Below are positions 5,521-64,000 of a DNA stretch of 64,000 bases, piece after piece. This stretch comes from Lytechinus pictus (lineage: Eukaryota). The position numbers and the translations under genes are program-made. The notes under the pieces were generated by a model that ran no database searches, was not told the DNA's origin, and saw only the letters and a program-made list of their open reading frames with translations. The stretch spans positions 26,538,001 through 26,602,000 of the forward strand of contig NC_087251.1 in assembly GCF_037042905.1 (NCBI RefSeq), given 5' to 3'. How positions within the stretch are numbered: the stretch's first letter is position 1; every line of letters starts with the position of its first letter.

Positions 5521-5572
<52 letters not shown>
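5521..5572. repeat. (TA)n microsatellite
   Basis: Directly visible. Confidence 0.97.
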
Positions 5573-5578
<6 letters not shown>

Positions 5579-5770
5579 GGAGAAGAGAGCAAGATAAGAA
5601 GAAAAAGAAATGTGAATAAAATAATGGGAGGGGATAATTGGAAAATGAAAAAAAAATATCGGGTCATTACATAAAAATGAAAATTTCGCTCACACTTCGC
5701 GCTCGCATTTCCTGTTAAGTGAAATAATCTGCTCACTAGGATACCATGGAGCTTTGAATATCAAATTTTA

Positions 5771-7300
5771 AAGTCAATATGCACAAATTATTTTGCTCGA
5801 GATTCGAGTTTCTATTGCATTCTGTTCATGCTTACAAAAAGTGTTAAATAATGAAAACAAATCAGCTAGCGCTACGCGCTGGCATTATTTGACAGGCAAA
5901 TTTAGTGAGATATAAAAAATTGTATTCTCTTCATGTATTACAGAAAACAGTAATTCAAGTGTTACCGTTTCAAGTCAGTATATCACTTATTTTCATCTCG
6001 CATCAATTGTTTAGTAACATATCAACAAGTCAATATGCACAAATTATTTTGCTCGAGATTCGAGTTTCTATTGCATTCTGTTCATGCTTACAAAAAGTGT
6101 TAAATAATGAAAACAAATCAGCTAGCGCTACGCGCTGGCATTATTTGACAGGCAAATTTAGTGAGATATAAAAAATTGTATTCTCTTCATGTATTACAGA
6201 AAACAGTAATTCAAGTGTTACCGTTTCAAGTCAGTATATCACTTATTTTCATCTCGCATCAATTGTTTAGTAACATATCAACAAGTCAATATGCACAAAT
6301 TATTTTGCTCGAGATTCGAGTTTCTATTGCATTCTGTTCATGCTTACAAAAAGTGTTAAATAATGAAAACAAATCAGCTAGCGCTACGCGCTGGCATTAT
6401 TTGACAGGCAAATTTAGTGAGATATAAAAAATTGTATTCTCTTCATGTATTACAGAAAACAGTAATTCAAGTGTTACCGTTTCAAGTCAGTATATCACTT
6501 ATTTTCATCTCGCATCAATTGTTTAGTAACATATCAACAAGTCAATATGCACAAATTATTTTGCTCGAGATTCGAGTTTCTATTGCATTCTGTTCATGCT
6601 TACAAAAAGTGTTAAATAATGAAAACAAATCAGCTAGCGCTACGCGCTGGCATTATTTGACAGGCAAATTTAGTGAGATATAAAAAATTGTATTCTCTTC
6701 ATGTATTACAGAAAACAGTAATTCAAGTGTTACCGTTTCAAGTCAGTATATCACTTATTTTCATCTCGCATCAATTGTTTAGTAACATATCAACAAGTCA
6801 ATATGCACAAATTATTTTGCTCGAGATTCGAGTTTCTATTGCATTCTGTTCATGCTTACAAAAAGTGTTAAATAATGAAAACAAATCAGCTAGCGCTACG
6901 CGCTGGCATTATTTGACAGGCAAATTTAGTGAGATATAAAAAATTGTATTCTCTTCATGTATTACAGAAAACAGTAATTCAAGTGTTACCGTTTCAAGTC
7001 AGTATATCACTTATTTTCATCTCGCATCAATTGTTTAGTAACATATCAACAAGTCAATATGCACACATTATTTTGCTCGAGATTCGAGTTTCTATTGCAT
7101 TCTGTTCATGCTTACAAAAAGTGTTAAATAATGAAAAAAAAATCAGCTAGCGCTACGCGCTGGCATTATTTGACAGGCAAATTTAGTGAGATATAAAAAA
7201 TTGTATTCTCTTCATGTATTACAGAAAACAGTAATTCAAGTGTTACCGTTTCAAGTCAGTATATCACTTATTTTCATCTCGCATCAATTGTTTAGTAACA
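5771..7300 (+). repeat. 256-bp tandem repeat, about 6 near-identical copies
   Basis: Unit start aagtcaatatgcac recurs at 5771, 6027, 6283, 6539, 6795 and 7051. The ORF track shows identical 88-aa ORFs at 256-bp spacing. Confidence 0.97.
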
Positions 7301-19443: not shown

Positions 19444-22281
19444 CAGTGATATTTGACTAAAAGTTTAATAGCCTACATGTGATATGCATGTCATGGCTGG
19501 GCTGACAAAACCTCAAAATCTTGAAATTCAAAAATTTGGTTACAACTCTAAAATCCAGCTTTTTCTGAGCTGTCATCAAAATATTCAAATTTTGAGATAC
19601 AAGGTTTTATCAGATCAGCCATGATGAAAATTTATAAATTTTGAGGACAGCTTAGAAACTTAGGCTGTATTTAAAAAATATAGCAATGGGACAGTCTCAT
19701 AGTGCCTGAAAACAGTCTTCTGATACCTGTGAAGAACTCTTTAGAGGCAAATGAACGTTGCTACCCATGTTACAACTCTAAAATCTAGCTTATTCTAAGC
19801 TGTCATCAAAATATTTATATTTGAGATTTTTATCAGTCTAGCCATGATGTGACTCTCAATATGTAAAACATGTACCAATGATGAATGATGACTACTCTGA
19901 AAATGGCATTTTAAAGTAATAACTACTAGTACTAGTATCCAAGCAAAGAATCTAAGTATGCATTAATCTCTCCTGATAAATGTAACTCCTTGGCTTCCTG
20001 GCTTAAAAAAAACCCTTTGTATTTCCAGATTGGTTTTAATCAACCTGTATTTTGCCAGTGTGAAAGCAAAGTGCTTTAATATGAAATCTCTGAATTATGA
20101 GAACTTTTATCTCGGGTTGAATCAAATTAATTGATATTTGCAATGTGAAAGTAAATTGGAAAAATATATGTAGGGGATCTCATCAAAGACAAGGGCTTAC
20201 AAATGAAACATATTTCCTTGATGGAATTTGAAAAACTGCCAGAACTATACATGTATGTCCAGTTCTAGCAGGTGTAATTTCACAACATAAATGAATTTCT
20301 TAATATAAGTATATGTAGTTCTCTGATGGGCGATGTGTGAGAGCACCTAATATTTTCTAATTTTTTTCTTTTCCTGTCTCTTTTCCTGCCCCCTTTCCCC
20401 CTCTTGCTATGGTGATCAAAGTGCTGCAAACTAGTACTAATTTTTAGTCTTTTATTACTGAAAATAAAAAGAATACTGATGGTTTATGGCAAAATACTGA
20501 TTTATAAAGTGTCATTTAAATGTGTTGAGCTACATGTATGGTATTTCTTTGAAAATACTGATTTCCTCACCAAAATAATGATTTTCAGCTTCAAAAATAC
20601 TGAAATGTACTAGTTCAGGTTTGCAGCTCTGATGATGTCGGACTCTGAAGTCTGAACACATATTCTTGCAGTGTGCTTATAGCCTTATACATGTATGTGA
20701 CTGTCAAAGTTGATATTACAGGCATTCCCTTAAGATAGGCTTTATACAGATGGTAGACCAATAATCAACAGTTCACTGACATTAAAGCTAGCCTAGTTAA
20801 GGATAAGAATTGAAAAAAGAAAGAAATTACTTGTATCTAGAGCAGCGGTTTGAACACTTAAGGTCTTCTTTGGTGTCCAGTATAGATTAGATTGTTTTTT
20901 TTTTGTAACAATCATTTATAAATATTAATTGAAGGGCTTTGCTCTGCCCCTGACTGTTGATTATAATAATTTATCAGTGTTCAGGGAGATACCTCTTACA
21001 TTCACATTTCTGTGAACTATATATAAAATCACTTATTCACTTAATTTCTCAGTAATATCACATGTATTTCTATAACATGATAGATATATACAAGTTTCCT
21101 CAACTGACATAAAATAAAGAAAAAACAACAAAGAAAGAAAAAAGAAAAAAAAATGCCATGAAGTACTAGTACTTTCAAATTTTATACAAAGCTCTCCCTG
21201 ATGCTGATTTATTAAGAACAGCAAGAAAAAAATTAATAAGAAAAATATAACCACAGAATGCTTTGATATAATGCATCTGGAATGGCCACCAAGACTATGT
21301 GTGACCTTGTATGCATGCAGTACGTAGTTACTTGTGATGATTTTGAAATGCTTCAGAAAGACGTTTGATCTAGTCTGCTTATGAATTCCAAGTTCAGTCA
21401 TCATAATTTGTCAATTAAACAAGATAATTGGTTGTGGGAGAAGGATAATAACTTTTGTATTCTTATAAAAGAAGGGCATTGCATGCATGGATGAAGCATC
21501 AAGGCTAAAGCATAATTGTTTTCATTCTGCAGTTAGCAGCAGAAAGGTACCTTGATATAATTATGTACAATGTTCACAATGATTGCTAAATTTGCCCCTA
21601 TGCACCTGATAATACTTGGAGACATTGCATGTTATGAATAGGAAATCTAGTTCTGGTTTCTGGTTGGGATTTTGTGAATTCTGAAAGAAATTTTCTCAAA
21701 AGTCAATACCGTTTCACATAGTATGCCTTTTGTGCTTACAATCAAAATCCAAACAAAATCACATTTTGATGAAAAAAAAACTAATTTGAAACAGTGAAGT
21801 GATATATTTATGTACTTCAATATGAAATTCTTTGGTTAAATGATATTGTGCTGAATTGGAAATCTTGTATGGTCATGTTCATATTTTTAATCACTTTTTA
21901 AGAAAAAAAAATCTGCTTTTTATTCATGATACACCCTTTACATATTTCCTGAATATGTCAGTCTACCATCTGAGAGTATTTGTGCTGATACATGTATGTG
22001 TAACACATCTGTCAGCTGCAGGGGGGGGGGGGGGGGGCTACATATGCAGTTCCTGTGAAGAAATATGCATGTGAAGGAAATTTCTGAAAAATGCTCACAC
22101 ATATTTTGTGATACACCCTACCCTTATGATTTCTTCAAAATGTCAGTCTGTCTCTCACAAACTGTCCAACGCAAAACCTGCATATTAACAAGTGGAGAGA
22201 AATGTTGATCATATACTCCATTCGTATTCAGATATAAGAATAAATTCTTGATTTTATTATACACCCTATACTTATGATTTC

Positions 22282-22892
22282 TTAAAGGTCAAGTCCACCC
22301 CAGAAAATTTTTGATTAGAATAAACAGAGAAAAATTAAACTAGCATAATGCTGAAAATTTCATCAAAATCGGATGGAAAATGAGAAAGTTATGGCATTAT
22401 AAAGTTTCGCTTATTTTTCACAAAACAGTGATATGCACAACTCAGTGATATGCAAATGAGAGAGTTGATGATGTCACTCACTCACTATTTCTTTTGTTTT
22501 TTATTGTTTGAATTATACAATATTTCATTTTTTTACGGATATGGCAATTATGACCATCTTGTTTGAACCACAAAATGTTAAAACAATCAAATCCCAAATG
22601 TTAAGGGAGGAATGAAACTTTGCTCACATGACATTGAGGAGAAAATTCAAATATTTCATATTTCATATAATCGAATACAAAAGAAATAGTGAGTGGGTGA
22701 TGTCATTGGTCCCCTCATTTGCATACTGACCAGGATGTGCATATAACTTTTTGGTGAAAGTTAGCAAAACTTGAAGATGTCATAACTTTCGTATTTCAGA
22801 TCCGATTTTGATGAAATTTTCAGTGTTATTCTTGTTTGATTTTTCTTTTTCTATTCAAATCATCTTTTTGTTGGAGTGGACTTGTCCTTTAA
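22282..22892. mobile_element. TTAA-site MITE, full length
   Basis: TTAA-aggtcaagtccacccc ... ggagtggacttgtcct-TTAA, with long imperfect internal inverted repeats. Confidence 0.9.
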
Positions 22893-44900: not shown

Positions 44901-47472
44901 TTTTGGGCAGGTAGAGTTCTCTCATCTGCTCCTGCTCTACAACTCCACTTGCTGATTCAAGCCAGCCTTCTCTCATCTCACACTCAAGCTAGCCTTCTAC
45001 TCAACCCTCCAATCTTGCCTACCAATTAAGTCTTTCTACTCTTTCTGATTTACAGTCCTTTTAGGACTACACTCTTTTCCGAAAGATATACTCCACTTTC
45101 TAGCCTTCACTTCTTTCTCTATCCTCTTTCTCTTCGTCCTTTTCCAGGACTTTACACATGGTGTACCATAAACCATTTCCTCGATTGTTCATACCACCTT
45201 CAAACATAATCTGAAACTTTTCACCTTTTTATCAATAATTCAACCATTCATTTATCGATATCAGTACAACAAATAGTGTTAAGATTCCTGTTTCTTTTAC
45301 ATTAAAACAAACATTTGTAGCTTTACATTGATGAATACAATGGAAATCAACTTACCAGTAATGATGATTGCTGAAGTGCTCAGTCATTATCAGGAGTTTC
45401 TTCTGCTTTTAACTCAGTCTCAGATGAAATTCTGCATCACAACTCACATCCATCAAGTGCAATGGCACTTTCTCACTATAAACTTTTGTACAAACTAAAA
45501 TTTTCAAGGATTTGGGGAATGTTTCATAAGATTTGTCAGTGATTTTCACTTTATACAGTTTTGTGCCGGGGCTCAGCCAATAACAATGCATGGAACTGCA
45601 ATAGCTTATATTTATCTGTCAGTGAATGGACCAACATAGAGATGGACAATTAATGCGAGCATTCCTTTGATGCAATGATAGTCACTGTCACCTGATTATG
45701 TGCATCTTAATGAGACCATTCAGGTGATTTACAATAGTGACTACCAAGGTGTATCTGAAAAGTAGTATAGAAATTTTTTCTTTCATTGTAAAAAGGGGAT
45801 AGACCGAGCATGGACCTATAAAGAGATGGACATTCATCGCTTAGATAATGTATTCACTAACAGGTGACTATAATTGTCATCTGAATAACATTCTCTTCAT
45901 ACTAGTCTTCTTTGGTCCTATGATCGTCACTGTGAGAAGGGACTGAAGCAGTTCGTGACTGGACATTTATATTTCACAAATTATATGCGCAATAGATAAC
46001 AAATCACTTAAATCATGGAAAATCTATGTGCAGTTCTTGTTTACCTTTGGTAATCTTAGTTCCATGTGTTTTATTTGGGGAAATGTCTGCATATTTTACT
46101 ATAGAGGCAATATTGTGATTGTTTACCATTTAAAATTTAATTTTCCCAAGTTTCTCCATAATATTCCAGAAATGTGTGGTACATAACATGTATAGATCTT
46201 GTATCTCTCAATGTTATTGACTGAGGTCCTTATGTGTGAGCGGTAGTTAGCAGATCGAATAATATCATATTTTATATCATAAAAATCCTCTGCTTCTCAA
46301 GTTTTCTGCTCCAAATATGAAGCATGTTGACTGAAAGGCACATGCTGAAACAGGGTATCAGCCAACAAAAATCAAGACCGGGAAACTGTTCCGTCTTTGG
46401 GTGATCAGATATGCCTTGGTAGTTATGGTAATTGCTATTGTTACAACACCTGTATGTTCTCATTAAGATGCGCATAACCAGGCGACGGTGACGATTATTG
46501 GACCAAAGACATGCTTGCGTTAATTGTCCATCTCTTCATAGGTCCATGGACAGAGAGAGAGAGGGCTGGGAGGGGAGGGGGGGGGGGGGGGGTAAGAGAA
46601 AGATAGAGATAAGGAGAGAATGGGGTGCATATATTATAAAAAATAATAGTAAATGGACCTTACACAAGGACACTTTTTTTGTATAGGGCTATATTTTGCA
46701 ACTTCTATTCAATTCTATAAAAAAACCCACACTTTTAATTGAAACCCTTTCATGTGGTAAATGGTATATGCACCAAAATGTTCATTGGCGATGGTTTAGC
46801 GCGTAAGAAAGGTTCATCAGTCGTTCTTAAAGTCGCTCTTAACTTACGAACAGCTTTATGAAACAGCCCCCAGGCCTAGAATTATCAAAATTTCAATCCC
46901 TGGGCCCTTTTTCAACTTAGGACTGTTTTTTTTACAGGTTGGGGATGAATCACTCTCTGTGCATATACAACTATTTTTCCGGACCTTACAAGAAAAACAA
47001 TTTATAACATCAACCTCGATGAAGTGAATTTCAACAGGATAGGTTAAAATGAATACCTGAAGGTGCTTTCATAAAAGTAGAGTATTGATCAGTGGTCAAT
47101 GTTGGTTGATTGAGTGACTGTCTTGATCTTTGACCAATTTGGTCTATAACAACATTATGGCGTATACATGTATACCTTGGGTATTTTACTGAGGTAATTA
47201 TGAGAACACTCAACAGTTACTCTGCCATCACTGACTGTTGTGACTGACACTCTACTGTTGTTCTAGAGTGAGAGGACCTACACACTCCATATATTCACAT
47301 TGGACTATATCATAAGTCTATATCACTAAATACACAAGTCTATATCACTCAATACACAATATAAAGAACATGATGGATCCATCTGGAATATGAATATTCA
47401 TATAGCTTTTTTTTTTATTAACATCAGATTAGTCACCTCAAAACTGCTTTGAATTGCAATTATGTAACATCA

Positions 47473-47514
<42 letters not shown>

Positions 47515-49743
47515 TTTTATGTAAGTAATATAAAAATGAAATAGGCAATAATTTTTTCAACTATTAATCTAGGTAAACATCAAAAGATTTGAATCAAAAG
47601 TTTGAATACCAAGAATACACATTACAAAGTATATAAAAATTCAAATACATCAATTTGTAGAAATTCAATGGAGTGGGTGATAAGGAATGAATGAAATTAT
47701 TACCCTGTATTTGAAGCCTATATGAAGCTTTGATCAATCCAATAGACAATATTCTTTCAATTGCTTCAAATTTGCTTTTTAAGGTTAATGCATCATTAAA
47801 TAATCTATTTAGAAAAAAAATAAGTGAAATAAGTGTGACCACCTCCCCCCAAAAATACTGCATTAGATTCTTTTTTATAATTTCATTAAAAACATGGCAA
47901 ATTTAAAGATTTGAAAAGATTTTATGATTTTTTTTGTTATTTTACAAACCTTATGAGCAAAACAAGAGATATGGATGATATCATAATTGGCTTTATTGGT
48001 TTAGCATTTCAAACTCATGAACAATATGAAAGGAAGAGTTACTGTAATAAAGAGTAAATCTCTTTCTTAACAACACATAATACTCGATGTTCAGTTTTTT
48101 ATTTATGACCTTTTTTTGGTGGGGATTAAGGAATACAGTACATTATCTATATGCATGCAAACCTTATGATATAGTGACCATCCATTACAAACACAAACAG
48201 TGACCTTTATAGACAGGTGAGACAAGTTCTTAAATACAATTAGTGGGCATTGGTTTTTGTGGTCACTATAGGCAGGCAGCCCCTTACATAGGTTTGATTG
48301 AATATAAAAACCTGTTTAATATAGAGGTATCCCAGTACTTACAGCACTGGTCATTCATGGGTTTAAATCTTTAATATACACAATATAATTTTTTTTCTCG
48401 TCATTAATATGAATCTCTTTTTGTGCTTTAACAGATGACTACCCATTTAAAAAAAATTATTAAGGAAATAATTGCAGTTGCACATACACCTTATTTCATA
48501 AATAACATAAATAGTTTTATTCATCTGAATAACATAAATAGTTTTATTCATCTCATATCTCACTCTGAAATTTTTTCTTAGAAATTATACATTTCTGTTT
48601 CCTAAACACAGATATATAAAAATTATGTGATAAAAATATATCAAAACAAACAAAAGACCTCTCTATAATTATAAATCAGCTACACAATGAGATCTGACAC
48701 ATATTCATATACTACAATAGAAATGGTCAGGAACATACCCTGTATTTTGTATCATAATTGCCACTAAAATAATCACAATAATACTGAAATTCAAAGATAT
48801 AATTCAACAAAAAGAACAAATTATTCTTAATTGTTACAAATTAATTCAACAAACAGCCTATCAAACTGGAGGATTGTGGGTAAAGTCATGATCACAATAA
48901 ATGTTATTCATAATCTATAATGCTTTCTACAGATGCACATGGCTAGATTTTGGTCATTTAAATTATTTTCTTCAGAATTGCAAGAGCATGCTCATGACAT
49001 AATTCTCCATTTCCTCCAGATGCACTACTCCAAACAAATATGCCTTTCTGGAAAAAAAACTCCAAACCCCCCCAAAAAAAATATTTGACAACGGTCTGTA
49101 GTATACCGAGATGTGACTCATGTCACCTTGCACAAGGAAAAAATAATTATTTCTATACTGGTAGAGGGGGCTACTTTTGTTACATATCAAAACCACATTT
49201 TATGTGGAACCGAGATCAATTAATGGTGCTCTTTGACAGATTGTTGGGGTGATTTTTTTTATTGGTGAATCATTCAACCCTTGTGATGTGATGCTGCAGA
49301 AATCTTGTTTTGCAGAGTGTAGTGTGTAATGAAAGGGCAGTAGTACTTTCATTTAATTCAGCAAAATAAATAATGAAAGTTGAATTATGAACTTACTGAG
49401 AACTGAAAGGAAACATGAAATTGTGTCTTGCTTGCTAATCAAGACTCTGAAAACACAATCAATGATGGCCATCATCTAATCACCAAGACTTTTGGGCTGC
49501 TTGGTAGTTACATTTTGAACACAACCAATAAGTGAAAGATCCTAGGCATTAAGGCAGCAAATAACTACACACTGAGTGAAGCTGAAGGAGGGGAGCAGCC
49601 ATGCCAAGCGTATCCTGGGAACCACTTTCACAAACCCCATCAATTTTATTCCCATTCAATTTTTCTGAACTAACCATCCTTTTCATCCCCCAAAGTTCAG
49701 AAAATATCATTGAAGACAGAGAAGGATAAGAAAATTAATACGA

Positions 49744-51030
49744 CATACACAAAACTTGATAAATTGTGTTCATTTTGTCATAAGAGTTGTGGGAGAAAAG
49801 TTATTCAACATGTTCAAATATTCCACAAGGATGTAAAGGATGTCTACCAAGTATTTGTCCAACAAGCAGCAACCCAAGAAAGAAGTGGGGCACTAACAAA
49901 ATGAAGATTAAAGACCAAAGATTGAAGACTGAAGTTAGGAAACCAAAGACATTTAGAAGGCTAATATTCATAGCCAAGGCATGCCTCCCTCTCACAGGAA
50001 GAAGGGAGTCGGGGCCCATCTCCGTGATTTTTGGCAGAAGATGGTTTAACCTGCAAAGAAAAACAGGGACCAGAGGTCAAAGACAGGAGGTAGACCCCAA
50101 ACCAAATAAAAGGCTAGGATGGCTTCCAACTGACCACTCCTATGACTCACATTTGTCAGTTAATCAGTTCGTTCTTAAAGGTCTATGACAGGTAAAAAGT
50201 AATCTCATCTTATCAATCATAAATTTATTGAAAGTGAAGGGAGTGCTAGTGGTGGAGGGGTGGTATAAGGAGTCTAGATGGGCACGTTTCAATTTTTAAA
50301 GTTACTTTGTACGCTATGTGGAGAATATTTGACAAGAATAGATTTAAGAATAGATTCTGTGTTGAACACTGATTTAATAGCAGAGCAAACAGATATTTCA
50401 GCTCAAGAAGACACAGGGGAAGTCAACCACACAAATTTTTGTTTGGGGTGCTATGCACAGTTGATAAAAAATAAAAATAAAACGGAAACATTGTGGCAAC
50501 CCACAGCGAATTGGGTAGGACATGAAAGAAACAAGAAATGTAGTGTTGTGAAAAAGCAACAAGGTTGCTCAAGGGAGAAAAACCTCAAAAGAAAAGTCAA
50601 GGATGGCTTCTTACTGACCATTCACTTGGCTCAACCCTTGAAAGTTAATTACAGTTTGTTCTCAAAGGATTGGATGAAATACAGACAAAAAATGCATTTG
50701 CTTTGAGTGAGGAGATGTCTCATTTGTCTTGTTTTGTCACTCTGCTATGTTATGTGTTATGCGCTATACAAAAACTGACCATTATTATTATTAATAGCCT
50801 GAAAAAGGACGCCCCTTAAAACAAAAGACTACTACATGTACCTGTATACATCTGAAATAGAACCTTATATGACAATTACACCAGGGACTCCAGAAACTAT
50901 GGTACCTGTAAATCATATTCAATTTTATCTGATGTCAATGCAGAGAAGTACGTATGCATGATATGCCAAAATCACACAATGTGAGACAAACGTGGAAGAC
51001 CCTGTGGTAGCAAGCGATGGCTATTGAAAT
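49744..51030 (+). pseudogene. Decayed gene with two RAG1-N-terminal (CND)/Chapaev-like Zn modules and a RING remnant
   Basis: ORF 50278-50706 has LKLLCTLCG...DLIAEQTDISAQEDTGEVNHTNFCLGCY...WVGH...C...LKRK. This parallels RAG1 LRHLCRICG...[28 protein letters not shown]...WHPH...C...LKRK (by eye, recalled sequence). A second copy LDKLCSFC lies near 49756, and YVCMICQN at about 50949-50972. Confidence 0.55.
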
Positions 51031-51569
51031 CACTTTGCATGGCTATGATTCAGTTTATATGAGTGTATTCAGCCTACTCTATGAATAATGCATTTCAGCG
51101 AAGTACAATATCAATGACTTATAATGATTTGGATTATGTTCCATTTATCGTACAAATTATTTTATTAAGTCCTTTTCTTTACACCAAAGCATATGTGGTT
51201 CCAACATTTCAGTAAGAGTGGGAGCAACCAGCCAATATTTGTTGACACATTGAGACAATACACATGAGAGATGGCTGGCTTGATTCCAACAATATATCTT
51301 TGGAGAAATTGCTGATGATAGGGTATGGGCAGCATTGAGACATCTGGTTATAAATCACGAACAATTTATTTCTTTAGTTTAGGATAGAAAATTTGGAATA
51401 TTAAAATCAGGAGTTTCAAATATGTTATTGGCTTCAGGATGGTATGGAACGATAAAATCCTGACCAACTAAGAAGTTTTTTTACATTTCACAACTGGTTC
51501 TAATACCTCACCATGTGATATAAGGAAAACAAGCACAACTTTGAACCACTCGTACTACCCTCAACAAAA

Positions 51570-52013
51570 ATGCCTCAGAGACGATCTTTCACTGCAGCAT
51601 TCAAACTCTCTGTCTGCCAGTATGCAGAAGAGTTTGGAAACAGGGTAGCAGGGCAACATCACGGTGTGGACGAGTCTGTCATCAGACGATGGAGATCAAA
51701 CAGCGACACTCTGAAGGCGATGCTGAGAACAAAGAAGGCAATGAGAGGGAAGGCAGCTAGATGGCCGGCACCGAAAAAGAAGGTTATCGCCTGGGTTAGA
51801 GAAAAGCGTAGTGAGGGCCACGCTCTATCAACTGTGGAGCTTTGCATCAAAGGGAGGCGCATAGCTGAGGCTGATGGGATTGATGACTTGACTGGGTCTA
51901 AGATGTGGGCTCATCGATTCATGGCCCACCACAACCTCTCAATGCGGCGACGAACCCACATCTCCCAAAGACACCCCGACGATTTCGACAGCAAAATAAT
52001 GAACTTCCAGTGA
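51570..52013 (+). CDS. Truncated pogo transposase N-terminus (Brinker-like HTH + CENP-B-type HTH), 147 aa, unit 1
   Basis: MPQRRSFTAAFKL..YAEEFGNR..GVDESVIRRWR and WVREKRSEG..S..WAHRFM..HNLSMRRRT. Expression is unknown. Confidence 0.5.
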   Translation: MPQRRSFTAAFKLSVCQYAEEFGNRVAGQHHGVDESVIRRWRSNSDTLKAMLRTKKAMRGKAARWPAPKKKVIAWVREKRSEGHALSTVELCIKGRRIAEADGIDDLTGSKMWAHRFMAHHNLSMRRRTHISQRHPDDFDSKIMNFQ

Positions 52014-52901
52014 TTTGTTATTAATAGACGGCGGCTCCATGACTACCCACTTTTCATTTATCGTACAAATTATTTTATTTAGTCCTTTTCTTTACACCAA
52101 AGCATGTGGTTCCGAGATTTCAGTAAGAGTGGGAGCAACCAGCCAATATTTGTTGACACATTGAGACAATACACATGAGAGATGGCCGGCACCGGAGGAG
52201 AAGGTTATCGCCTGGGTAAGAGAGAAGCGTAGTGAGGGCCACTCTCTATCAACTGTGGAGCTTTGCATCAAAGGGAGGCGCATAGCTGAGGCTGACGGGA
52301 TTGATGACTTGACTGGGTCTAAGATGTGGGCTCATCGATTCATGGCCCACCACAACCTCTCAATGCGGCAACAAACCCACATCTCCCAAAGACACCCCGA
52401 CAATTTCAACAGCAAAATAATGAACTTCCAGTGATTTGTTATTAATAGACGGCGGCTCCATGACTACCCACTTTTCATTTATCGTACAAATTATTTTATT
52501 TAGTCCTTTTCTTTACAACAAAGCATGTGGTTCCGAGATTTCAGTAAGAGTGGGAGCAACCAGCCAATATTTGTTGACACATTGAGACAATACACATGAG
52601 AGATGGCTGGCTTGATTCCAACAATATATCTTTGGAGAAATTGCTGATGATAGGGTATGGGCAGCATTGAGACATCTGGTTATAAATCACGAACAATTTA
52701 TTTCTTTAGTTTAGGGTAGAAAATTTGGAATGTTAATATCAAGAGTTTCAAATATGATATTGGCTCCAGGATGGTATGGAACGATAAAATCCTGACCAAC
52801 TTAGAAGTTTTTTTACATTTCACAACTGGTTCTAATACCTCACCATGTGATATAAGGAAAACAAGCACAGCTTTGAACCACTCATACTACCCTCGACAAA
52901 A

Positions 52902-55900
52902 ATGCCTCAGAGACGATCTTTCACTGCAGCATTCAAACTCTCTGTCTGCCAGTATGCAGAAGAGTTTGGGAACAGGGCAGCAGGGCAACATCACGGTGTG
53001 GACGAGTCTGTCATCAGACGATGGAGATCAAACAGCGACACTCTGAAGGCAATGCTGAGAACAAAGAAGGCAATGAGAGGGAAGGCAGCTAGATGGCCGG
53101 CACCGGAGGAGAAGGTTATCGCCTGGGTAAGAGAGAAGCGTAGTGAGGGCCACGCTCTATCAACTGTGGAGCTTTGCATCAAAGGGAGGCGCATAGCTGA
53201 GGCTGACGGGATTGAGACTTGACTGGGTCTAAGATGTGGGCTCATCGATTCATGGCCCACCACAACCTCTCAATGCGGCGACGAACCCACATCTCCCAAA
53301 GACACCCCGACGATTTCGACAGCAAAATAATGAACTTCCAGTGATTTGTTATTAATAGACGGCGGCTCCATGACTACCCACTTTTCATTTATCGTACAAA
53401 TTATTTTATTTAGTCCTTTTCTTTACAACAAAGCATGTGGTTCCGAGATTTCAGTAAGAGTGGGAGCAACCAGCCAATATTTGTTGACACATTGAGACAA
53501 TACACATGAGAGATGGCTGGCTTGATTCCAACAATATATCTTTGGAGAAATTGCTGATGATAGGGTATGGGCAGCATTGAGACATCTGGTTATAAATCAC
53601 GAACAATTTATTTCTTTAGTTTAGGGTAGAAAATTTGGAATGTTAATATCAAGAGTTTCAAATATGATATTGGCTCCAGGATGGTATGGAACGATAAAAT
53701 CCTGACCAACTTAGAAGTTTTTTTACATTTCACAACTGGTTCTAATACCTCACCATGTGATATAAGGAAAACAAGCACAGCTTTGAACCACTCATACTAC
53801 CCTCGACAAAAATGCCTCAGAGACGATCTTTCACTGCAGCATTCAAACTCTCTGTCTGCCAGTATGCAGAAGAGTTTGGGAACAGGGCAGCAGGGCAACA
53901 TCACGGTGTGGACGAGTCTGTCATCAGACGATGGAGATCAAACAGCGACACTCTGAAGGCAATGCTGAGAACAAAGAAGGCAATGAGAGGGAAGGCAGCT
54001 AGATGGCCGGCACCGGAGGAGAAGGTTATCGCCTGGGTAAGAGAGAAGCGTAGTGAGGGCCACGCTCTATCAACTGTGGAGCTTTGCATCAAAGGGAGGC
54101 GCATAGCTGAGGCTGACGGGATTGAGACTTGACTGGGTCTAAGATGTGGGCTCATCGATTCATGGCCCACCACAACCTCTCAATGCGGCGACGAACCCAC
54201 ATCTCCCAAAGACACCCCGACGATTTCGACAGCAAAATAATGAACTTCCAGTGATTTGTTATTAATAGACGGCGGCTCCATGACTACCCACTTTTCATTT
54301 ATCGTACAAATTATTTTATTTAGTCCTTTTCTTTACAACAAAGCATGTGGTTCCGAGATTTCAGTAAGAGTGGGAGCAACCAGCCAATATTTGTTGACAC
54401 ATTGAGACAATACACATGAGAGATGGCTGGCTTGATTCCAACAATATCTTTGGAGAAATTGCTGATGATAGGGTATGGGCAGCATTGAGACATCTGGTTA
54501 TAAATCACGAACAATTTATTTCTTTAGTTTAGGGTAGAAAATTTGGAATGTTAATATCAAGAGTTTCAAATATGATATTGGCTCCAGGATGGTATGGAAC
54601 GATAAAATCCTGACCAACTTAGAAGTTTTTTTACATTTCACAACTGGTTCTAATACCTCACCATGTGATATAAGGAAAACAAGCACAGCTTTGAACCACT
54701 CATACTACCCTCGACAAAAATGCCTCAGAGACGATCTTTCACTGCAGCATTCAAACTCTCTGTCTGCCAGTATGCAGAAGAGTTTGGGAACAGGGCAGCA
54801 GGGCAACATCACGGTGTGGACGAGTCTGTCATCAGACGATGGAGATCAAACAGCGACACTCTGAAGGCAATGCTGAGAACAAAGAAGGCAATGAGAGGGA
54901 AGGCAGCTAGATGGCCGGCACCGGAGGAGAAGGTTATCGCCTGGGTAAGAGAGAAGCGTAGTGAGGGCCACGCTCTATCAACTGTGGAGCTTTGCATCAA
55001 AGGGAGGCGCATAGCTGAGGCTGACGGGATTGAGACTTGACTGGGTCTAAGATGTGGGCTCATCGATTCATGGCCCACCACAACCTCTCAATGCGGCGAC
55101 GAACCCACATCTCCCAAAGACACCCCGACGATTTCGACAGCAAAATAATGAACTTCCAGTGATTTGTTATTAATAGACGACGGCTCCATGACTACCCACT
55201 TTTCATTTATCGTACAAATTATTTTATTTAGTCCTTTTCTTTACAACAAAGCATGTGGTTCCGAGATTTCAGTAAGAGTGGGAGCAACCAGCCAATATTT
55301 GTTGACACATTGAGACAATACACATGAGAGATGGCTGGCTTGATTCCAACAATATCTTTGGAGAAATTGCTGATGATAGGGTATGGGCAGCATTGAGACA
55401 TCTGGTTATAAATCACGAACAATTTATTTCTTTAGTTTAGGGTAGAAAATTTGGAATGTTAATATCAAGAGTTTCAAATATGATATTGGCTCCAGGATGG
55501 TATGGAACGATAAAATCCTGACCAACTTAGAAGTTTTTTTACATTTCACAACTGGTTCTAATACCTCACCATGTGATATAAGGAAAACAAGCACAGCTTT
55601 GAACCACTCATACTACCCTCGACAAAAATGCCTCAGAGACGATCTTTCACTGCAGCATTCAAACTCTCTGTCTGCCAGTATGCAGAAGAGTTTGGGAACA
55701 GGGCAGCAGGGCAACATCACGGTGTGGACGAGTCTGTCATCAGACGATGGAGATCAAACAGCGACACTCTGAAGGCAATGCTGAGAACAAAGAAGGCAAT
55801 GAGAGGGAAGGCAGCTAGATGGCCGGCACCGGAGGAGAAGGTTATCGCCTGGGTAAGAGAGAAGCGTAGTGAGGGCCACGCTCTATCAACTGTGGAGCTT

Positions 55901-55948
55901 TGCATCAAAGGGAGGCGCATAGCTGAGGCTGACGGGATTGAGACTTGA
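52902..55948 (+). pseudogene. Four frameshifted 106-aa copies of the transposase N-terminus (52902, 53812, 54720, 55628)
   Basis: A shared 1-bp deletion (gattgagact vs gattgatgact) truncates the second HTH. Confidence 0.8.
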
Positions 55949-56535
55949 CTGGGTCTAAGATGTGGGCTCATCGATTCATGGCCCACCACAACCTCTCAAT
56001 GCGGCGACGAACCCACATCTCCCAAAGACACCCCGACGATTTCGACAGCAAAATAATGAACTTCCAGTGATTTGTTATTAATAGACGGCGGCTCCATGAC
56101 TACCCACTTTTCATTTATCGTACAAATTATTTTATTTAGTCCTTTTCTTTACAACAAAGCATGTGGTTCCGAGATTTCAGTAAGAGTGGGAGCAACCAGC
56201 CAATATTTGTTGACACATTGAGACAATACACATGAGAGATGGCTGGCTTGATTCCAACAATATCTTTGGAGAAATTGCTGATGATAGGGTATGGGCAGCA
56301 TTGAGACATCTGGTTATAAATCACGAACAATTTATTTCTTTAGTTTAGGGTAGAAAATTTGGAATGTTAATATCAAGAGTTTCAAATATGATATTGGCTC
56401 CAGGATGGTATGGAACGATAAAATCCTGACCAACTTAGAAGTTTTTTTACATTTCACAACTGGTTCTAATACCTCACCATGTGATATAAGGAAAACAAGC
56501 ACAGCTTTGAACCACTCATACTACCCTCGACAAAA

Positions 56536-56979
56536 ATGCCTCAGAGACGATCTTTCACTGCAGCATTCAAACTCTCTGTCTGCCAGTATGCAGAAGAGTT
56601 TGGGAACAGGGCAGCAGGGCAACATCACGGTGTGGACGAGTCTGTCATCAGACGATGGAGATCAAACAGCGACACTCTGAAGGCAATGCTGAGAACAAAG
56701 AAGGCAATGAGAGGGAAGGCAGCTAGATGGCCGGCACCGGAGGAGAAGGTTATCGCCTGGGTAAGAGAGAAGCGTAGTGAGGGCCACGCTCTATCAACTG
56801 TGGAGCTTTGCATCAAAGGGAGGCGCATAGCTGAGGCTGATGGGATTGATGACTTGACTGGGTCTAAGATGTGGGCTCATCGATTCATGGCCCACCACAA
56901 CCTCTCAATGCGGCGACGAACCCACATCTCCCAAAGACACCCCGACGATTTCGACAGCAAAATAATGAACTTCCAGTGA
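56536..56979 (+). CDS. Truncated pogo DNA-binding-only ORF, 147 aa, unit 7
   Basis: Open from ATG to the shared TGA after KIMNFQ. Confidence 0.5.
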   Translation: MPQRRSFTAAFKLSVCQYAEEFGNRAAGQHHGVDESVIRRWRSNSDTLKAMLRTKKAMRGKAARWPAPEEKVIAWVREKRSEGHALSTVELCIKGRRIAEADGIDDLTGSKMWAHRFMAHHNLSMRRRTHISQRHPDDFDSKIMNFQ

Positions 56980-57444
56980 TTTGTTATTAATAGACGGCGG
57001 CTCCATGACTACCCACTTTCCATTTATTGTACGAATTATTTTATTTAGTCCTTTTCTTTACAACAAAGCATGTGGTTCCGAGATTTCAGTAAGAGTGGGA
57101 GCAACCAGCCAATATTTGTTGACACATTGAGACAATACACATGAGAGATGGCTGGCTTGATTCCAACAATATCTTTGGAGAAATTGCTGATGATAGGGTA
57201 TGGGCAGCATTGAGACATCTGGTTATAAATCACGAACAATTTATTTCTTTAGTTTAGGGTAGAAAATTTGGAATGTTAATATCAAGAGTTTCAAATATGA
57301 TATTGGCTCCAGGATGGTATGGAACGATAAAATCCTGACCAACTTAGAAGTTTTTTTACATTTCACAACTGGTTCTAATACCTCACCATGTGATATAAGG
57401 AAAACAAGCACAGCTTTGAACCACTCATACTACCCTCGACAAAA

Positions 57445-57888
57445 ATGCCTCAGAGACGATCTTTCACTGCAGCATTCAAACTCTCTGTCTGCCAGTATGC
57501 AGAAGAGTTTGGGAACAGGGCAGCAGGGCAACATCACGGTGTGGACGAGTCTGTCATCAGACGATGGAGATCAAACAGCGACACTCTGAAGGCGATGCTG
57601 AGAACAAAGAAGGCAATGAGAGGGAAGGCAGCTAGATGGCCGGCACTGGAGGAGAAGGTTATCGCCTGGGTTAGAGAGAAGCGTAGTGAGGGCCATGCTC
57701 TATCAACTGTGGAGCTTTGCATCAAAGGGAGGCGCATAGCTGAGGCTGATGGGATTGATGACTTGACTGGGTCTAAGATGTGGGCTCATCGATTCATGGC
57801 CCACCACAACCTCTCAATGCGGCGACGAACCCACATCTCCCAAAGACACCCCGACGATTTCGACAGCAAAATAATGAACTTCCAGTGA
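57445..57888 (+). CDS. Truncated pogo DNA-binding-only ORF, 147 aa, unit 8
   Basis: Open from ATG to the shared TGA. It carries the WPALEE variant. Confidence 0.5.
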   Translation: MPQRRSFTAAFKLSVCQYAEEFGNRAAGQHHGVDESVIRRWRSNSDTLKAMLRTKKAMRGKAARWPALEEKVIAWVREKRSEGHALSTVELCIKGRRIAEADGIDDLTGSKMWAHRFMAHHNLSMRRRTHISQRHPDDFDSKIMNFQ

Positions 57889-58353
57889 TTTGTTATTAAT
57901 AGACGGCGGCTCCATGACTACCCACTTTCCATTTATTGTACGAATTATTTTATTTAGTCCTTTTCTTTACACCAAAGCATGTGGTTCCGAGATTTCAGTA
58001 AGAGTGGGAGCAACCAGCCAATATTTGTTGACACATTGAGACAATACACATGAGAGATGGCTGGCTTGATTCCAACAATATCTTTGGAGAAATTGCTGAT
58101 GATAGGGTATGGGCAGCATTGAGACATCTGGTTATAAATCACGAACAATTAATTTCTTTAGTTTAGGGTAGAAAATTTGGAATGTTAATATCAAGAGTTT
58201 CAAATATGATATTGGCTCCAGGATGGTATGGAACGATAAAATCCTGACCAACTTAGAAGTTTTTTTACATTTCACAACTGGTTCTAATACCTCACCATGT
58301 GATATAAGGAAAACAAGCACAGCTTTGAACCACTCATACTACCCTCGACAAAA

Positions 58354-58797
58354 ATGCCTCAGAGACGATCTTTCACTGCAGCATTCAAACTCTCTGTCTG
58401 CCAGTATGCAGAAGAGTTTGGGAACAGGGAAGCAGGGCAACATCACGGTGTGGACGAGTCTGTCATCAGACGATGGAGATCAAACAGCGACACTCTGAAG
58501 GCGATGCTGAGAACAAAGAAGGCAATGAGAGGGAAGGCAGCTAGATGGCCGGCACTGGAGGAGAAGGTTATCGCCTGGGTTAGAGAGAAGCGTAGTGAGG
58601 GCCATGCTCTATCAACTGTGGAGCTTTGCATCAAAGGGAGGCGCATAGCTGAGGCTGATGGGATTGATGACTTGACTGGGTCTAAGATGTGGGCTCATCG
58701 ATTCATGGCCCACCACAACCTCTCAATGCGGCGACGAACCCACATCTCCCAAAGACACCCCGACGATTTCGACAGCAAAATAATGAACTTCCAGTGA
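58354..58797 (+). CDS. Truncated pogo DNA-binding-only ORF, 147 aa, unit 9
   Basis: Open from ATG to the shared TGA. Confidence 0.5.
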   Translation: MPQRRSFTAAFKLSVCQYAEEFGNREAGQHHGVDESVIRRWRSNSDTLKAMLRTKKAMRGKAARWPALEEKVIAWVREKRSEGHALSTVELCIKGRRIAEADGIDDLTGSKMWAHRFMAHHNLSMRRRTHISQRHPDDFDSKIMNFQ

Positions 58798-59262
58798 TTT
58801 GTTATTAATAGACGGCGGCTCCATGACTACCCACTTTCCATTTATTGTACGAATTATTTTATTTAGTCCTTTTCTTTACACCAAAGCATGTGGTTCCGAG
58901 ATTTCAGTAAGAGTGGGAGCAACCAGCCAATATTTGTTGACACATTGAGACAATACACATGAGAGATGGCTGGCTTGATTCCAACAATATCTTTGGAGAA
59001 ATTGCTGATGATAGGGTATGGGCAGCATTGAGACATCTGGTTATAAATCACGAACAATTAATTTCTTTAGTTTAGGGTAGAAAATTTGGAATGTTAATAT
59101 CAAGAGTTTCAAATATGATATTGGCTCCAGGATGGTATGGAACGATAAAATCCTGACCAACTTAGAAGTTTTTTTACATTTCACAACTGGTTCTAATACC
59201 TCACCATGTGATATAAGGAAAACAAGCACAGCTTTGAACCACTCATACTACCCTCGACAAAA

Positions 59263-60525
59263 ATGCCTCAGAGACGATCTTTCACTGCAGCATTCAAACT
59301 CTCTGTCTGCCAGTATGCAGAAGAGTTTGGGAACAGGGAAGCAGGGCAACATCACGGTGTGGACGAGTCTGTCATCAGACGATGGAGATCAAACAGCGAC
59401 ACTCTGAAGGCGATGCTGAGAACAAAGAAGGCAATGAGAGGGAAGGCAGCTAGATGGCCGGCACTGGAGGAGAAGGTTATCGCCTGGGTTAGAGAGAAGC
59501 GTAGTGAGGGCCACGCTCTATCAACTGTGGAGCTTTGCATCAAAGGGAGGCGCATAGCTGAGACTGATGGGATTGATGACTTGACTGGGTCTAAGATGTG
59601 GGCTCATCGATTCATGGCCCACCACAACCTCTCAATGCGGCGACGAACCCACATCTCCCAAAGTCACCCCAACGATTTCGACAGCAAAATAATGAACTTC
59701 CAGCGATTTGTTATTAATAGACGGCTGCCCCATGACTACCCACTCAGCTGCATCGGGAAAGCCAATCAGACGCCCCTCACATTTGATCTTCCAAGGTGGT
59801 CCACTATTGCCAGCAAGGGAGAGAAGTAGGTCAACATCATCAGCACTGGGCACGAGAAAGACCGATTTATGGTGATGCTGGCATGTACAGCTGACGGCGG
59901 CAAACCCCCTCCGTATATTGTCTTTAAGTGGAAGACTCTTCCGAAAGAGAAGTTTCCAGCGGGAATCGTGAAGGCCCAGGTGAAAGGTTTGTTTGATCAG
60001 GACATCATCGAGGACTGGGTGAGGACGGTCTGGGCGAGAGGCGGTGGCATCACAAAGAGAAACAGCATGCTCATTCTCGATGCCTTTCGGTGTCACAAGA
60101 CAGAAGAGACAAAGGCCCTTCTTGCCGCAAAGAACACCGATCTTGTTATCATACTGGGTGGTATGACATCTATGCTCCAGCCCCTCGACATCAGCATCAA
60201 CAAGCCATTCAAGGATGCTCTTCATCAGCGATGGTCTGCTTGGATGAAAGAGGGGGAGAAATTCTTCATCCAGTCCGGTCAACAGAGAAAGGCGGATCTA
60301 CAGACGGTGTGCAGATGGGTCTTGGAGGCATGGAACAGCATCTACACAGATATCATTCGACGCTCATTCCTGAAATGCTGCATTTCAAATAGCCTCGATG
60401 GGACAGAGGATGATGCCATCTGGGAAGAGGAAGAGCGAGTCGATGAGGATGATGACTCCGACTCAGATGAGCTGCGCGCCGTGTTTGAAGACTCGTCTGA
60501 CGGGGAAGACTTCTTTGGCTTCTAA
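59263..60525 (+). pseudogene. Full-length pogo-family (POGK/Passer-like) transposase with one in-frame stop
   Basis: ORFs 59263-59829 and 59869-60525 are in the same frame, separated by TAG at 59827-59829. Motifs include TGHEK, VMLACTADG, LILDAFRCH and LQPLDISINKPFK (D-x35-D), plus an acidic tail. The first catalytic Asp position reads Asn (ANQTP). Confidence 0.92.
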
Positions 60526-60589
60526 GCTAGAGATACACATAATCAAAACGGCCCTTTGCAGGGCCACAAATATTCCAGAAAGAAATAGT

Positions 60590-61070
60590 GATTTGTCTCC
60601 ATCACCATCCTCTTCTCTTTTCATCCCCTCCTAAATCTTTTTTTTTCAATTTCTTCCATTTGCCTTTTCTTCATTTCTCTCTTTGTTAATCCTCCTCTTA
60701 AAATCTATCTTTAATTTCCCTCTTTTTACTTCTTCATTTTTTCTCTTCTATTTTTCCATACCTTTTTATAACTCTATTTTCTCATGCAAGTAAGAAAAAA
60801 AAATTATTTATCTCCACCTCCTATCTCTTTTCATCTCATTCTCGTTCTTATCTTTCTTCTCTTTATCATTTCTCCATGTTACCTTTTTTTATTTTTTTAT
60901 TTTTTTTTTTAAATTTTAATTCTACTCTGTTTTAATCTCCAATTTCTTCCATTTGCCTTTTTTTCATTACTCTCTTTGTCATTCATCATCTTAAAATCAA
61001 TCTTCAATTTCCCTCTTTATTTCTTCAGACTCTTTTAAAATTCTATTTTCTTTTCTATATTCACTTTATT
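60590..61070. repeat. CT-rich low-complexity tract with an ~80-bp direct duplication
   Basis: caatttcttccatttgcctttt...tttccctcttt occurs at about 60647 and 60940. Confidence 0.7.
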
Positions 61071-62191
61071 CCCACCCAAAGCTCCCAATAAAAAATACTA
61101 GCATTTTCCCCCCTATTTGCTGCCACACACGTACCGGGGTGTTTCAAAGCAGACGACAAGAAAAATACCTGAACAAAATATTGCAAATTTCTTGTATCTT
61201 GAACCTTCCCTTATCTAAGATTCATGTCAAGACATTGAATGCTAGACAGAATTCTGAAAGCGATAGTGGGACTGTGAAAAAGAAAATGAAAATCTTAAAA
61301 GAATGAATGGATAAAGGCAGGAGGAGATTTTAAAAAAAGATATACACATATTATTTTAGTGATTGATAATAAATCATACAAAGAAAGCAAGAAAATAAAA
61401 AAGGATCACAGACAATCAGTTAAATCTTTGAAAATTTGGGGTAACTCCCAAGTAGCTAATCAAGCTCTTGTCGTCAGGATATGTGGTGTGGCATCCTGAT
61501 GAAAATAGCCATTGGGCTAATTCTTTTCAGCTAATGGCATCAGATCAGGTTTGCTGTTTATCAATATTATTACGATACATGTAGGTTTACATTCTGTTTG
61601 GAGTGTGATCAGGGACCAAACAACAAGTCTCTGTTCAAGAAATTGGATGTGACTAAAAGATAAAACAAGTTTGAACTTTCAGAATCATGATACTTTTACA
61701 TATACGACATACAGCTCATGAAGAGTACACAAAACAATGTAATGAAATATGATATTGAATTTGAAGGAGCAAAGACAGGCAAAATGGCCACATATCAAGG
61801 CATTGATTTTCTTACAAAGACCAAACTTTCAATTTGTTCAAAGGATGACAAAGTGTCACTTTAAAATATCCTCTTTCAGTATAATTAGCGTTTCATTTGC
61901 AATTCATGTACTTAGCAGAACTGTGGTAGCTGGAATATGAACACATTACTTTCTAAGAAGTCTCCCTCTGGAAGATGTACACAGCTGAGTTTTGTGAAAA
62001 AATTGATAACCTGTTTGACTATTTGAATTCTAGATCATCTAGGGCTAGCCAAGACCATTATCCATAAAATGCTTTGTTTCACAAACCCAAAGTACGAACA
62101 CTGTTTGCTGTTGTGTGTACTGGATATAGTCACTTTGAAATATCCTCCTCTTTAAAGTGAGATTTAGTAGAAGAATTTGAACACATTTCCA

Positions 62192-62920
62192 TCTCATCAC
62201 TGCGGCGAATCAGTGAATTTAATAGAGAAGACGTTTGATTAATTTTGACTTCTAAAAGGAATTTAAAATATGATGAAGCATCCTAAGGTCTTAGATGAAC
62301 GATATTTGCTGCAAGGCTACAAAAGAGTAACAAGCAACTCATCACCAAAACTCAGAAGAGATGCTCCCTCAGAAAATGATAACAATTAACACAAAATGAC
62401 ATAGCTGTGGCACTCTCTCTATTCGCCAGAGGAAAGTAGCCATCAACAAATTTGCAGACAGTAGCAAGCAAAAAGTACGGTTGAGAAGAAAGAATAAGGG
62501 AAAAAAAACAAGCTGGAGGACCTGCTGACTAAGCTAGCTGCATTGCCAGGTCTCATCCCTTCAGCGAATCAGTGAACAGCAGCAGTGAACTTAATAGAGA
62601 AGACGTTTAATTCATTTTGGCTTCTAAAAGGAATTGAAAACATGACGAAGCATCCTAAGGTCTTTATATTTGCTGCAAGGCTACAAAAGAGCAACTAGCA
62701 ACTCACCAAAACTCAGTTGGAAGAGATTCTCCCTCAGAAAATGATTATAATGAACACAAAATAACATAGCTGTGGCACTCTCATTATTTGCCAGAGGAAA
62801 GAAGCCATCAACAAATTTGCCGACAGTAGCAAGCAAAAAGTACGGTTGACAAGAAAGAATGAGAAGGAAAAAAAAACAAGCTGGAGGACCTGCTGACTAA
62901 GCTAGCTGCATTGCCAGGTG
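62192..62920 (+). repeat. Tandem duplication of ~360 bp (two diverged copies)
   Basis: tctcatc...gcgaatcagtgaa...gctagctgcattgccaggt at 62192-62551 and 62551-62920. Confidence 0.9.
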
Positions 62921-64000
62921 ATGAAACATTGTCTGTGGGAGATGCAGTCTCAGGAAATGTCCCATGGCACTCTGATGGTCTTTCAACACCATCTCTGCCA
63001 TTTGGGGAGAAAAAGAAGATGGCGCATCTTTGGACACTAAGCAAAAGATATGAGGAGGCGGAATACCAATCGTGGGCAGAAATGAAAGGGGTGCTGTAGC
63101 ACTATCAGGAGAGGATTGCTTCATTACAGGAAGAAAAGTCATCAGAACATAACATTATATTCTTATCAGAATCAAAAGGTTCAAATATTTCACAGGCTTC
63201 AGGATGGCATGGAATGGTTAAATCATTTCTTGAGGCGATTTCAGCAAGCATAGTCTATAGTGATTACCAAGAAGCTGACACAGGCGATAAACAAAATTGA
63301 ATATCACAAGATGACAAGTATAACAGGCCTATTATGGGATATGTGCCACCAATGCTTTGGGGTGAATTTTTTTAAGGAAAAGAAGGATACTGAATCAGAT
63401 GTCATGAATTACACGTTCAGAAATGGGACATTTGTCTCTAATAAACTTAAAAGACACAACATGATGCTTTGAAGAGTACTATTTGAAGGAAAATGATACT
63501 AAAAGAGGTCATGTGATGCAGAATTGGACGTGGAGGAGATAAAGGCGGAAGAGTAAGGCAGAGGAGAAAGAGGTAAAAACAGAGGAAATGGAGACCGGCT
63601 GATTACTCATGATACATGTAATAAAGAAAGTAATATGATTATTTTAAAGAAGATGGCTCAGATGGTGGAAAGGGGGATACAGGAACAAGAGGAAACTCTT
63701 GGGAGAATGAATGGATAAAGGCAGGTGATAGAAGCAGCATATGAAGAGCCAGAGGAGATGTAAATATGTGATAATAAATTATGCAAAGAAAGAAAATCAA
63801 AGTGGATGATAGTGAAGCAGGTAAATTTTGGAAAATTTGGGATACCTCCCCCCCCCCCGTCGCAAATCAGGCTCAAGTTACGCAGTGTGGCATCCCAATG
63901 GAACATCCATTGGGATACTCTTTTTCAGCTAATGGTATCAGAGCAGGTCTACTGGAGAGGATCATAAAAGATTGCTTATCAAATATTATAACAATTGGGT

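Follow-up and report, generated by a model that had tools for sequence, protein, structure and literature searches.

The stretch described here can with considerable confidence be regarded as the dead remains of cut-and-paste DNA transposons of the Chapaev type (CMC) from a sea urchin. It lies in a window of 64,000 nucleotides (the whole stretch of DNA that was analysed, to which all positions refer) and contains one complete but frameshifted copy of the RAG1-N/Chapa zinc domain (NZD; module 2), which Chapaev shares with the antibody-gene recombinase RAG1, a truncated second copy (module 1) and two copies of the linker that follows the domain, interleaved with fragments of other repeats (Table 1). 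The assignment to the Chapaev type rests on approximately 170 residues because the window holds neither a Chapaev core nor the ends of such an element.

Table 1. Features of the relic and its immediate surroundings, with positions in the window
Feature	Positions	Strand	Evidence
Module 1, truncated and frameshifted 5' part of an NZD/Chapa domain	49735..49888	+	Frameshift-aware score, generic profile
Fragment of a foreign exon from an unrelated family of multi-copy repeats	49966..50087	+	Genome matches, scores against L071 and L074
Second copy of the post-NZD linker (GRP...DHS...LKGL)	50088..50192	+	DNA match to 50574-50691
Foreign repeat fragment, continuation	50179..50217	+	32/39 nt identical to L040, E 3e-5
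Module 2, NZD/Chapa domain and basic stretch, complete but frameshifted	50274..50600	+	Profile, BLASTP, Atlas
Linker, matching that between NZD and RING in P0004	50601..50735	+	Continuous alignment to P0004
High-copy repeat, 3' tail with terminal (ATT)n	50748..50794	+	Genome matches, tail alignments, read pile-up with loose ends
Unassigned DNA with C-M-I-C and K-R-G-R-P	50795..51138	+	RING scores at background

In module 2, all eight ligands of the NZD, as defined in bioRxiv 10.64898/2026.01.24.700457, can be recognised, arranged as H, CxxC, CxxC, H, CxxC (His 50283, the cysteine pairs 50308/50317 and 50440/50449, the W-x-x-H histidine 50521, and Cys 50539 and 50547), two of them being readable only across one-base shifts. 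A preliminary description of this DNA had reported a 142-aa ORF (50278-50706) with a zinc pattern. The ORF is present, and the first two CxxC pairs, the W-x-x-H histidine and Cys 50539 are found in it as described; the motif H-x3-L-x2-L-C-x2-C can indeed be read at both 50283 and 49744, each time across one one-base shift. The LKRK stretch had been counted as part of the same pattern and has to be removed from it. Only ORF residues ~4-90 follow the ancestral frame; from ~50547 onwards the homology continues in another frame, and the last 50 residues of the ORF, LKRK included, are therefore off-frame.

On a profile built from 20 NZD sequences, none of them from the window, the ORF scores 49 bits, the best of 1000 shuffled versions reaching 9.3, and module 2 attains 139.6 on the generic NZD profile versus a background maximum of 47.1 in 618 tiles. 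Searches of the ESM Atlas returned RAG1_imp_bd clusters at 0.94, the family being assigned to about one third of their members, with zf-AD at 0.82 on rank 23, and a profile of five relatives without window sequence retrieved the structure of the RAG1 NZD (21WB) at E 1.8e-9 and the ZAD structure 7PO9 at 0.044; including the window ORF brought 21WB to 8.4e-14. By sequence, the domain is thus a RAG1-N/Chapa zinc domain rather than zf-AD, in line with the original proposal, although the direct Pfam comparison of the ORF alone remains below threshold (only RAG1_imp_bd, E 0.071, and no zf-AD match at E 10). Against the PDB at E 10, the ORF alone yielded two unrelated chains and no RAG1. Two of 1.84 billion representative proteins passed E 0.001 with the ORF as query, namely P0002, an NZD-RING protein, and P0001 (E 3e-9), a repetitive protein of 5144 aa without the cysteines, which we rejected as spurious. 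The corresponding search of the genome gave four non-self matches among six candidates.

The fold searches, directed at the interdigitated two-zinc fold of the NZD, spoke weakly for an unrelated, single-zinc zf-AD/ZAD domain. A zinc-free model of the ORF, of low confidence (pLDDT 54.8), retrieved weak ZAD matches only, which were the top matches (7PO9, E 1.7; 1PZW, Z 5.0, rmsd 2.9 over 61 residues), and 21WB was listed in neither search. However, the ZAD matches are not significant, and the NZD preprint (10.64898/2026.01.24.700457) reports both a local likeness between ZFa and ZAD and poor models in the zinc-free state. Module 2 also has the ligands of a second zinc site, and the profile of the relatives and the Atlas values given above both favour the NZD over ZAD, so that a zf-AD domain is hardly credible.

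When module 2 was scored against 20 NZDs, P0002 (152) and P0004 (144) ranked first and the other 18 reached at most 90 (L037 90, host-like domains 60-87, P-type domains 44-70, the RAG1L-like locus L052 48). P0004 is a transposase from Diadema with the order NZD-RING-C2H2-DUF1280-DDE, both zinc copies of the relic match its type best, and BLASTP aligns it to module 2 with 32% over 87 aa (pairwise E 1e-11). Its RING is like that of RAG1 (1RMD, E 4.6e-6; among the best 60 of 102 matches, none has the core as its best stretch), and its core is identified by DUF1280 (Pfam) and by the motifs C(2)C, LH and H(4)H, which are also present in L037 and have been named for Chapaev (PMC4079192). In a tree of 24 rows, vertebrate RAG1 not being among them, module 2 joins P0002 and P0004, but weakly, with support of 82/15 and on a very long branch. 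Module 2 and the adjoining linker form one continuous alignment to P0004 (score 182 over the module; linker alone 57); the linker carries one in-frame stop and reaches up to the RING boundary of P0004, whose first RING cysteine corresponds to ~50732. Among named homologues, those of Lytechinus and Diadema are closest.

The NZD is also carried by RAG1-like (RAG1L/TransibSU) transposases, and the relic could be a remnant of the N-terminus of one of these; PMC9885083 describes many RAG1L pseudogenes in sea urchins. A RAG1L-like locus, so labelled from its motifs, occurs in this genome as well (L052), yet module 2 scores just the 48 given above against its partial NZD, and the match of the linker to the NZD-to-RING linker of P0004 was counted against a RAG1L origin, to which we give very little credence. 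Echinoid RAG1L is without the RING-containing ZDD according to PMC9885083, a point in favour of the Chapaev type, and by eye none of the window ORFs that were viewed resembled RAG1L or RAG2L. L052 itself (G000:C4) consists of an NZD exon (1462-1764) followed by a further exon (2600-3157), the latter presumably resembling the start of the RAG1L core; no Pfam match was obtained for the locus.

The genome searched is an 812-Mb assembly of 368 contigs. It yielded no close relative of the modules at the DNA level, and the parent family itself was thus not encountered. A genome search with P0004 gave no match near the window, but as 47 of 112 candidates were scored and module 2 itself was missed, it was not counted. 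Among the NZD-bearing sequences collected, the context is of the Chapaev type in L037, P0004 and P0006 and, by likeness, in P0002 and L050; it is of the P type in L064, P0009 and L040 and, by likeness, in L063 and L060; and no transposase accompanies the domain in the tandem genes of L039/L048 or in the double-NZD proteins P0005, P0007 and P0008. A young Chapaev-type family is present in this genome (L036, L037, L038 and L047; G000:C6, C7 and C15), with multi-exon genes encoding NZD-RING-C2H2 and a DDE core. Three copies are 99% identical over 6.7-7.5 kb, seven pieces match P0004 at 31-56%, the 5' end is CAC in three of three cases, and in two copies more than 8.4 kb separate the 3' end from the start. 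A second Chapaev-type family is located at C18/C10 (L050 and L057).

Module 1 keeps four of the eight ligands (His 49744, Cys 49767, Cys 49776 and one further Cys) together with remnants reading D-V-Y-P/I-C and P-R-K-K-W, and has lost the final ligands. Its frameshift-aware score against P0004, the best of 20 queries, is 63, a value reached by none of 1424 background tiles, and on the generic profile it scores 48.6, which is marginal against the maximum of 47.1 in 618 tiles. A likeness between the two zinc modules was seen neither in the DNA, where 82 of 300 shuffles score as high, nor above background in the protein (83 of 528 tiles). What is duplicated at the DNA level is the linker: 50086-50198 and 50574-50691 align with a score of 84 that none of 300 shuffles and none of 292 genomic tiles reach, with 76.5% over 81 nt between 50104-50181 and 50588-50668. 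The duplicated module of the preliminary description hence stands as far as a second, truncated zinc copy exists, and falls as far as a duplication of the zinc modules themselves was meant. The upstream linker copy sits within the foreign exon, flanked by 14-nt imperfect repeats. This exon belongs to a multi-copy family (16 matches among 18 genome candidates; scores of 122 against L071 and 117 against L074) whose likeness is to the Myb/SANT-like ORF found in Harbinger elements, a label that Pfam, with no relevant family, did not confirm. A common origin with an NZD-bearing P element, considered because of the DNA shared with L040, was rejected, this DNA being part of the multi-copy repeat exon.

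A single transposase or host gene with two tandem NZDs, later broken by insertions, might leave two modules such as these, 539 nt apart on the same strand, both closest to P0004 and each followed by a linker copy, and intact double-NZD proteins exist in other organisms (P0005, P0007 and P0008). However, the modules share no frame, the foreign exon splits module 1 from the first linker piece, the zinc modules are unlike each other in DNA and in protein, each of the four Chapaev-type relatives that could be read through the RING (L037, P0002, P0004 and P0006) has one NZD, and in the tree module 2 stands apart from the double-NZD proteins. We regard such a gene as quite improbable. The DNA between and after the modules consists of other repeats or is unassigned. 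A single gene with both modules, as envisaged earlier, does not emerge; a foreign repeat exon lies between them. Interleaved pieces of related copies are the simplest reading. The three double-NZD proteins are intact, 785-1044 aa in length, with two well-conserved NZDs and low-complexity sequence each and no transposase domain listed. Three tandem single-frame genes were observed in this genome at L048:1405-2490 and L039:1085-2923 and 4706-6433 (G000:C17, ~10.328-10.337 Mb). With 362-613 codons, an N-terminal NZD, a low-complexity middle and no transposase, they are candidate domesticated NZD genes; one has a close counterpart in Lytechinus variegatus (P0003), named 'mucin-5AC-like'.

Just after the linker follows a repeat tail of 47 nt, which has 535 candidates in the genome, is covered by 38 of 40 scored matches and is probably a retroposon tail. 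The DNA behind it returned only itself in the genome search. The RING-like start that had been read at 50943-50985 did not hold up, as all four RING queries score 24-28 there, with background medians of 26-29 (98 tiles each), and no RING was found in 50690-51140 (four of four queries at background), elsewhere in the window or in the next 6 kb. On the NZD profile, 50795-51138 scores 37.0, between the 95th (35.2) and 99th (39.7) background percentiles, and the C-M-I-C...K-R-G-R-P residues are weakly closer to the C-terminal end of an NZD than to a RING, at most a weak echo. A third NZD module at 50850-51017 was suggested by a 484-nt spacing and by the motif C-x2-C-x9-GRP, of which there is none in 1-49000; it is unproven, its DNA giving 21/36 against null maxima of 21-25, with 228 of 300 shuffles as high, and its protein scores being weak (13/284 and 51/284 tiles as high). 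Also rejected were a P-type HTH at 51015-51100, which is at background level (27 vs a 95th percentile of 26.7), and a PHD finger at 50870-50970, for which three frames gave no Pfam match.

Segments of the P0004 core were not clearly above background anywhere in the window (top scores 44-46 vs 95th percentiles of 39-41) or in the next 6 kb. The exception is a 31-residue core match at 60527-60619 (56 vs a maximum of 40 in 26 tiles), which is one of 33 trials and is without the conserved motif expected next. Chapaev elements have terminal inverted repeats of the form 5'-CAC...GTG-3' and target duplications of 3-4 bp. Flanking CAC...GTG pairs numbered one at the relic and four in a control region, and none stands out. 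The C-terminal partner that had been supposed at the locus is not seen, with no core, partner or terminal repeat found in the window. The related supposition that the parent kind had a non-RAG1 core is borne out by the closest intact relatives, which carry a Chapaev core.

Downstream, on the same strand, lies a P-type remnant at 61364-62055 (Pfam TNP-like_GBD, E 7.6e-5), and NZD-P fusions occur in this genome (L064/L068). The relic might on these grounds be the head of an NZD-bearing P-element-type transposase whose core, this remnant (from 61430), was split off by the pogo-type array in between. Against this, module 2 scores 44-70 with five P-type NZDs and 144-152 with the Chapaev-type pair that fits best, the remnant is a member of a different family (L078, 70% DNA identity) whose visible frame of 950 aa has an acidic/basic stretch but no NZD and does not align to 49600-51600, and the putative P-type HTH near 51015 does not rise above background. 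This origin is very unlikely. Two decayed P-type copies, ~70% alike, are in fact present, at 61364-62055 and at 63769-64421 (running on into L067); two intact-looking relatives at G000:C4 and C21 have frames of 959 aa, with a long Glu/Lys-rich stretch before the HTH. A homolog search with the remnant found nothing. More broadly, it is unlikely that the relic derives from a transposase with two tandem NZDs or with a non-Chapaev core and represents one case, in sea urchins, of the NZD passing freely from one transposase superfamily to another; this wider idea is better backed outside the window, by L064/L068. Chapaev-type debris is the reading retained here.

The surroundings of the zinc-domain relic are transposon debris, with a pogo-type array and P-type remnants. 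The array, at 51139-60525, consists of about ten head-to-tail units of ~909 nt, 96-99% alike, with Pfam matches to HTH_Tnp_Tc5, BrkDBD and DDE_1. Each unit holds the 5' part of a transposase, only the last reaching the DDE domain, with one stop between, and also contains a stretch resembling 63164-63224. A local duplication of 340 nt (62211-62551 and 62583-62919, 88%) precedes a decayed coding-like stretch (62881-63400), which is reminiscent of the C-terminus of KDZ/Zisupton-type transposases, a label without Pfam support. Elsewhere in the window, an inverted repeat at 45615-46558, with arms of ~120-150 nt (76-79%) spaced 650-710 nt apart, is probably a non-autonomous element, a 256-nt unit is repeated six times in tandem at 5771-7300 (99% alike), and the RING+C2H2 segment of P0004 scores 56 at 21001-22800 (95th percentile 42) in the window scan.

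Short-read contigs of run X2, which may be the assembly's own source sample, span the stretch with 0 differences and 0 gaps. A contig of run X5, from another study, shows 13 substitutions and 9 gap letters, with an additional one-base deletion at 50362, inside ORF 50278-50706. The frameshifts are genomic and not due to misassembly, the relic is dead, and its earlier description as a fossil was correct. RNA reads (two runs, ~6% of the reads) have a depth of 0-4 outside the repeat tail, and the first mates are all on the + strand. First mates on + indicate RNA of the opposite strand in most stranded libraries, and sense expression is therefore without support.

Two or three related copies, or one locally rearranged copy, may have been cut up at this locus by insertions and deletions, to which RING, core and ends would also have been lost, and nothing at the locus is predicted to make a working protein. 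In the living parent, judging from the families involved, the core would excise and reinsert the element between CAC...GTG ends, the NZD would serve as a two-zinc regulatory scaffold and the RING as a ubiquitin-ligase/dimer module, as in RAG1.

A side result concerns the NZD on a P-element transposase. At G000:C2 (~3.323-3.329 Mb; L064:1-1803, minus strand, and L068), an open frame of 630 codons leads from an eight-ligand NZD into a P-element transposase (Pfam TNP-like_RNaseH_N, 4.4e-23; PDB 6P5A, 2.9e-13; 21WB, 0.1), and the later exons presumably carry P-type motifs. Apparently, this is a complete multi-exon transposase of the P-element/THAP9 type with NZD/Chapa in place of THAP. Similar heads were observed in L063, L060, the decayed L040 and the protein P0009; a profile of four heads from the L064 group alone retrieves 21WB at 1.2e-9, and P0009, a protein of a separate data set, combines the two Pfam domains in a single chain. 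For residues 1-330 of L064, a homolog search found nothing and the Atlas gave no match above 0.78; the single-sequence fold model of the head is poor (pLDDT 48.7), and no ends of the element were found in 8.2 kb. We are highly confident that the fusion is real. THAP normally binds DNA at the head of P-type transposases. An NZD in this position would show the domain moving between superfamilies, and would suggest, and make testable, a binding of transposon DNA by the NZD, the function of which is undefined for RAG1. For the question of whether the RAG1 N-terminus can be swapped as a module, L064/L068 is more informative than the relic. We lean towards regarding the fusion as unreported: no report appears among the full-text literature matches listed, Repbase being outside the search, and among these matches the term 'Chapa domain' occurs only in PMC4411706 and the NZD preprint. 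Published statements place Chapa in no other transposable element, and the 2026 NZD preprint names Chapaev as the only lineage consistently retaining the NZD.

Among known systems, the relic is closest to the RING-bearing subgroups of Chapaev (CMC) with type I Chapa, with which module 2 shares the order H + CxxC + CxxC + H-x5-CxxC, one N-terminal and three C-terminal ZFb ligands, the basic stretch and the linker; the closest proteins, P0002 and P0004, are NZD-RING-C2H2, and P0004 also has the core. Unlike Chapaev, the relic consists of broken heads only, without RING, core or ends, and foreign DNA alternates with its second, partial head and linker copy. Compared with the RAG1 NZD (21WB), the order of the eight ligands is the same, but the relatives lack the vertebrate insertion, motif 1 has T for R and motif 2 N-H for H-P, and the ORF alone, unlike the profiles of its relatives, does not match the RAG1 NZD significantly. 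RAG1-N-like proteins with the same motifs have been described from sea urchin and lancelet (Kapitonov and Jurka 2005; PMC1131882); module 2 still shows their three motifs, H-x3-L-x3-C-R-x-C-G, D-x3-I-h-P-x2-F-C-x2-C and W-x-p-h-x(3-6)-C-x2-C, in recognisable form, and the RAG1-N-terminal-like N-RAG-TP from Aplysia is described in PMC8355894; these proteins include the RING, at the boundary of which the relic stops. Chapa followed by RING is described for two Chapaev subgroups (Kapitonov and Koonin 2015; PMC4411706), and NZD and RING on a non-RAG core are described there and in bioRxiv 10.64898/2026.01.24.700457. As the non-RAG partner of the relatives is this already described Chapaev core, the modular origin of RAG1, on which the relic had been thought to bear, is not illuminated by it. 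With RAG1-N-like sea urchin sequences known since 2005 and Chapa with RING since 2015, the relic itself matters little: it is an ordinary, dead example of a known transposon type.
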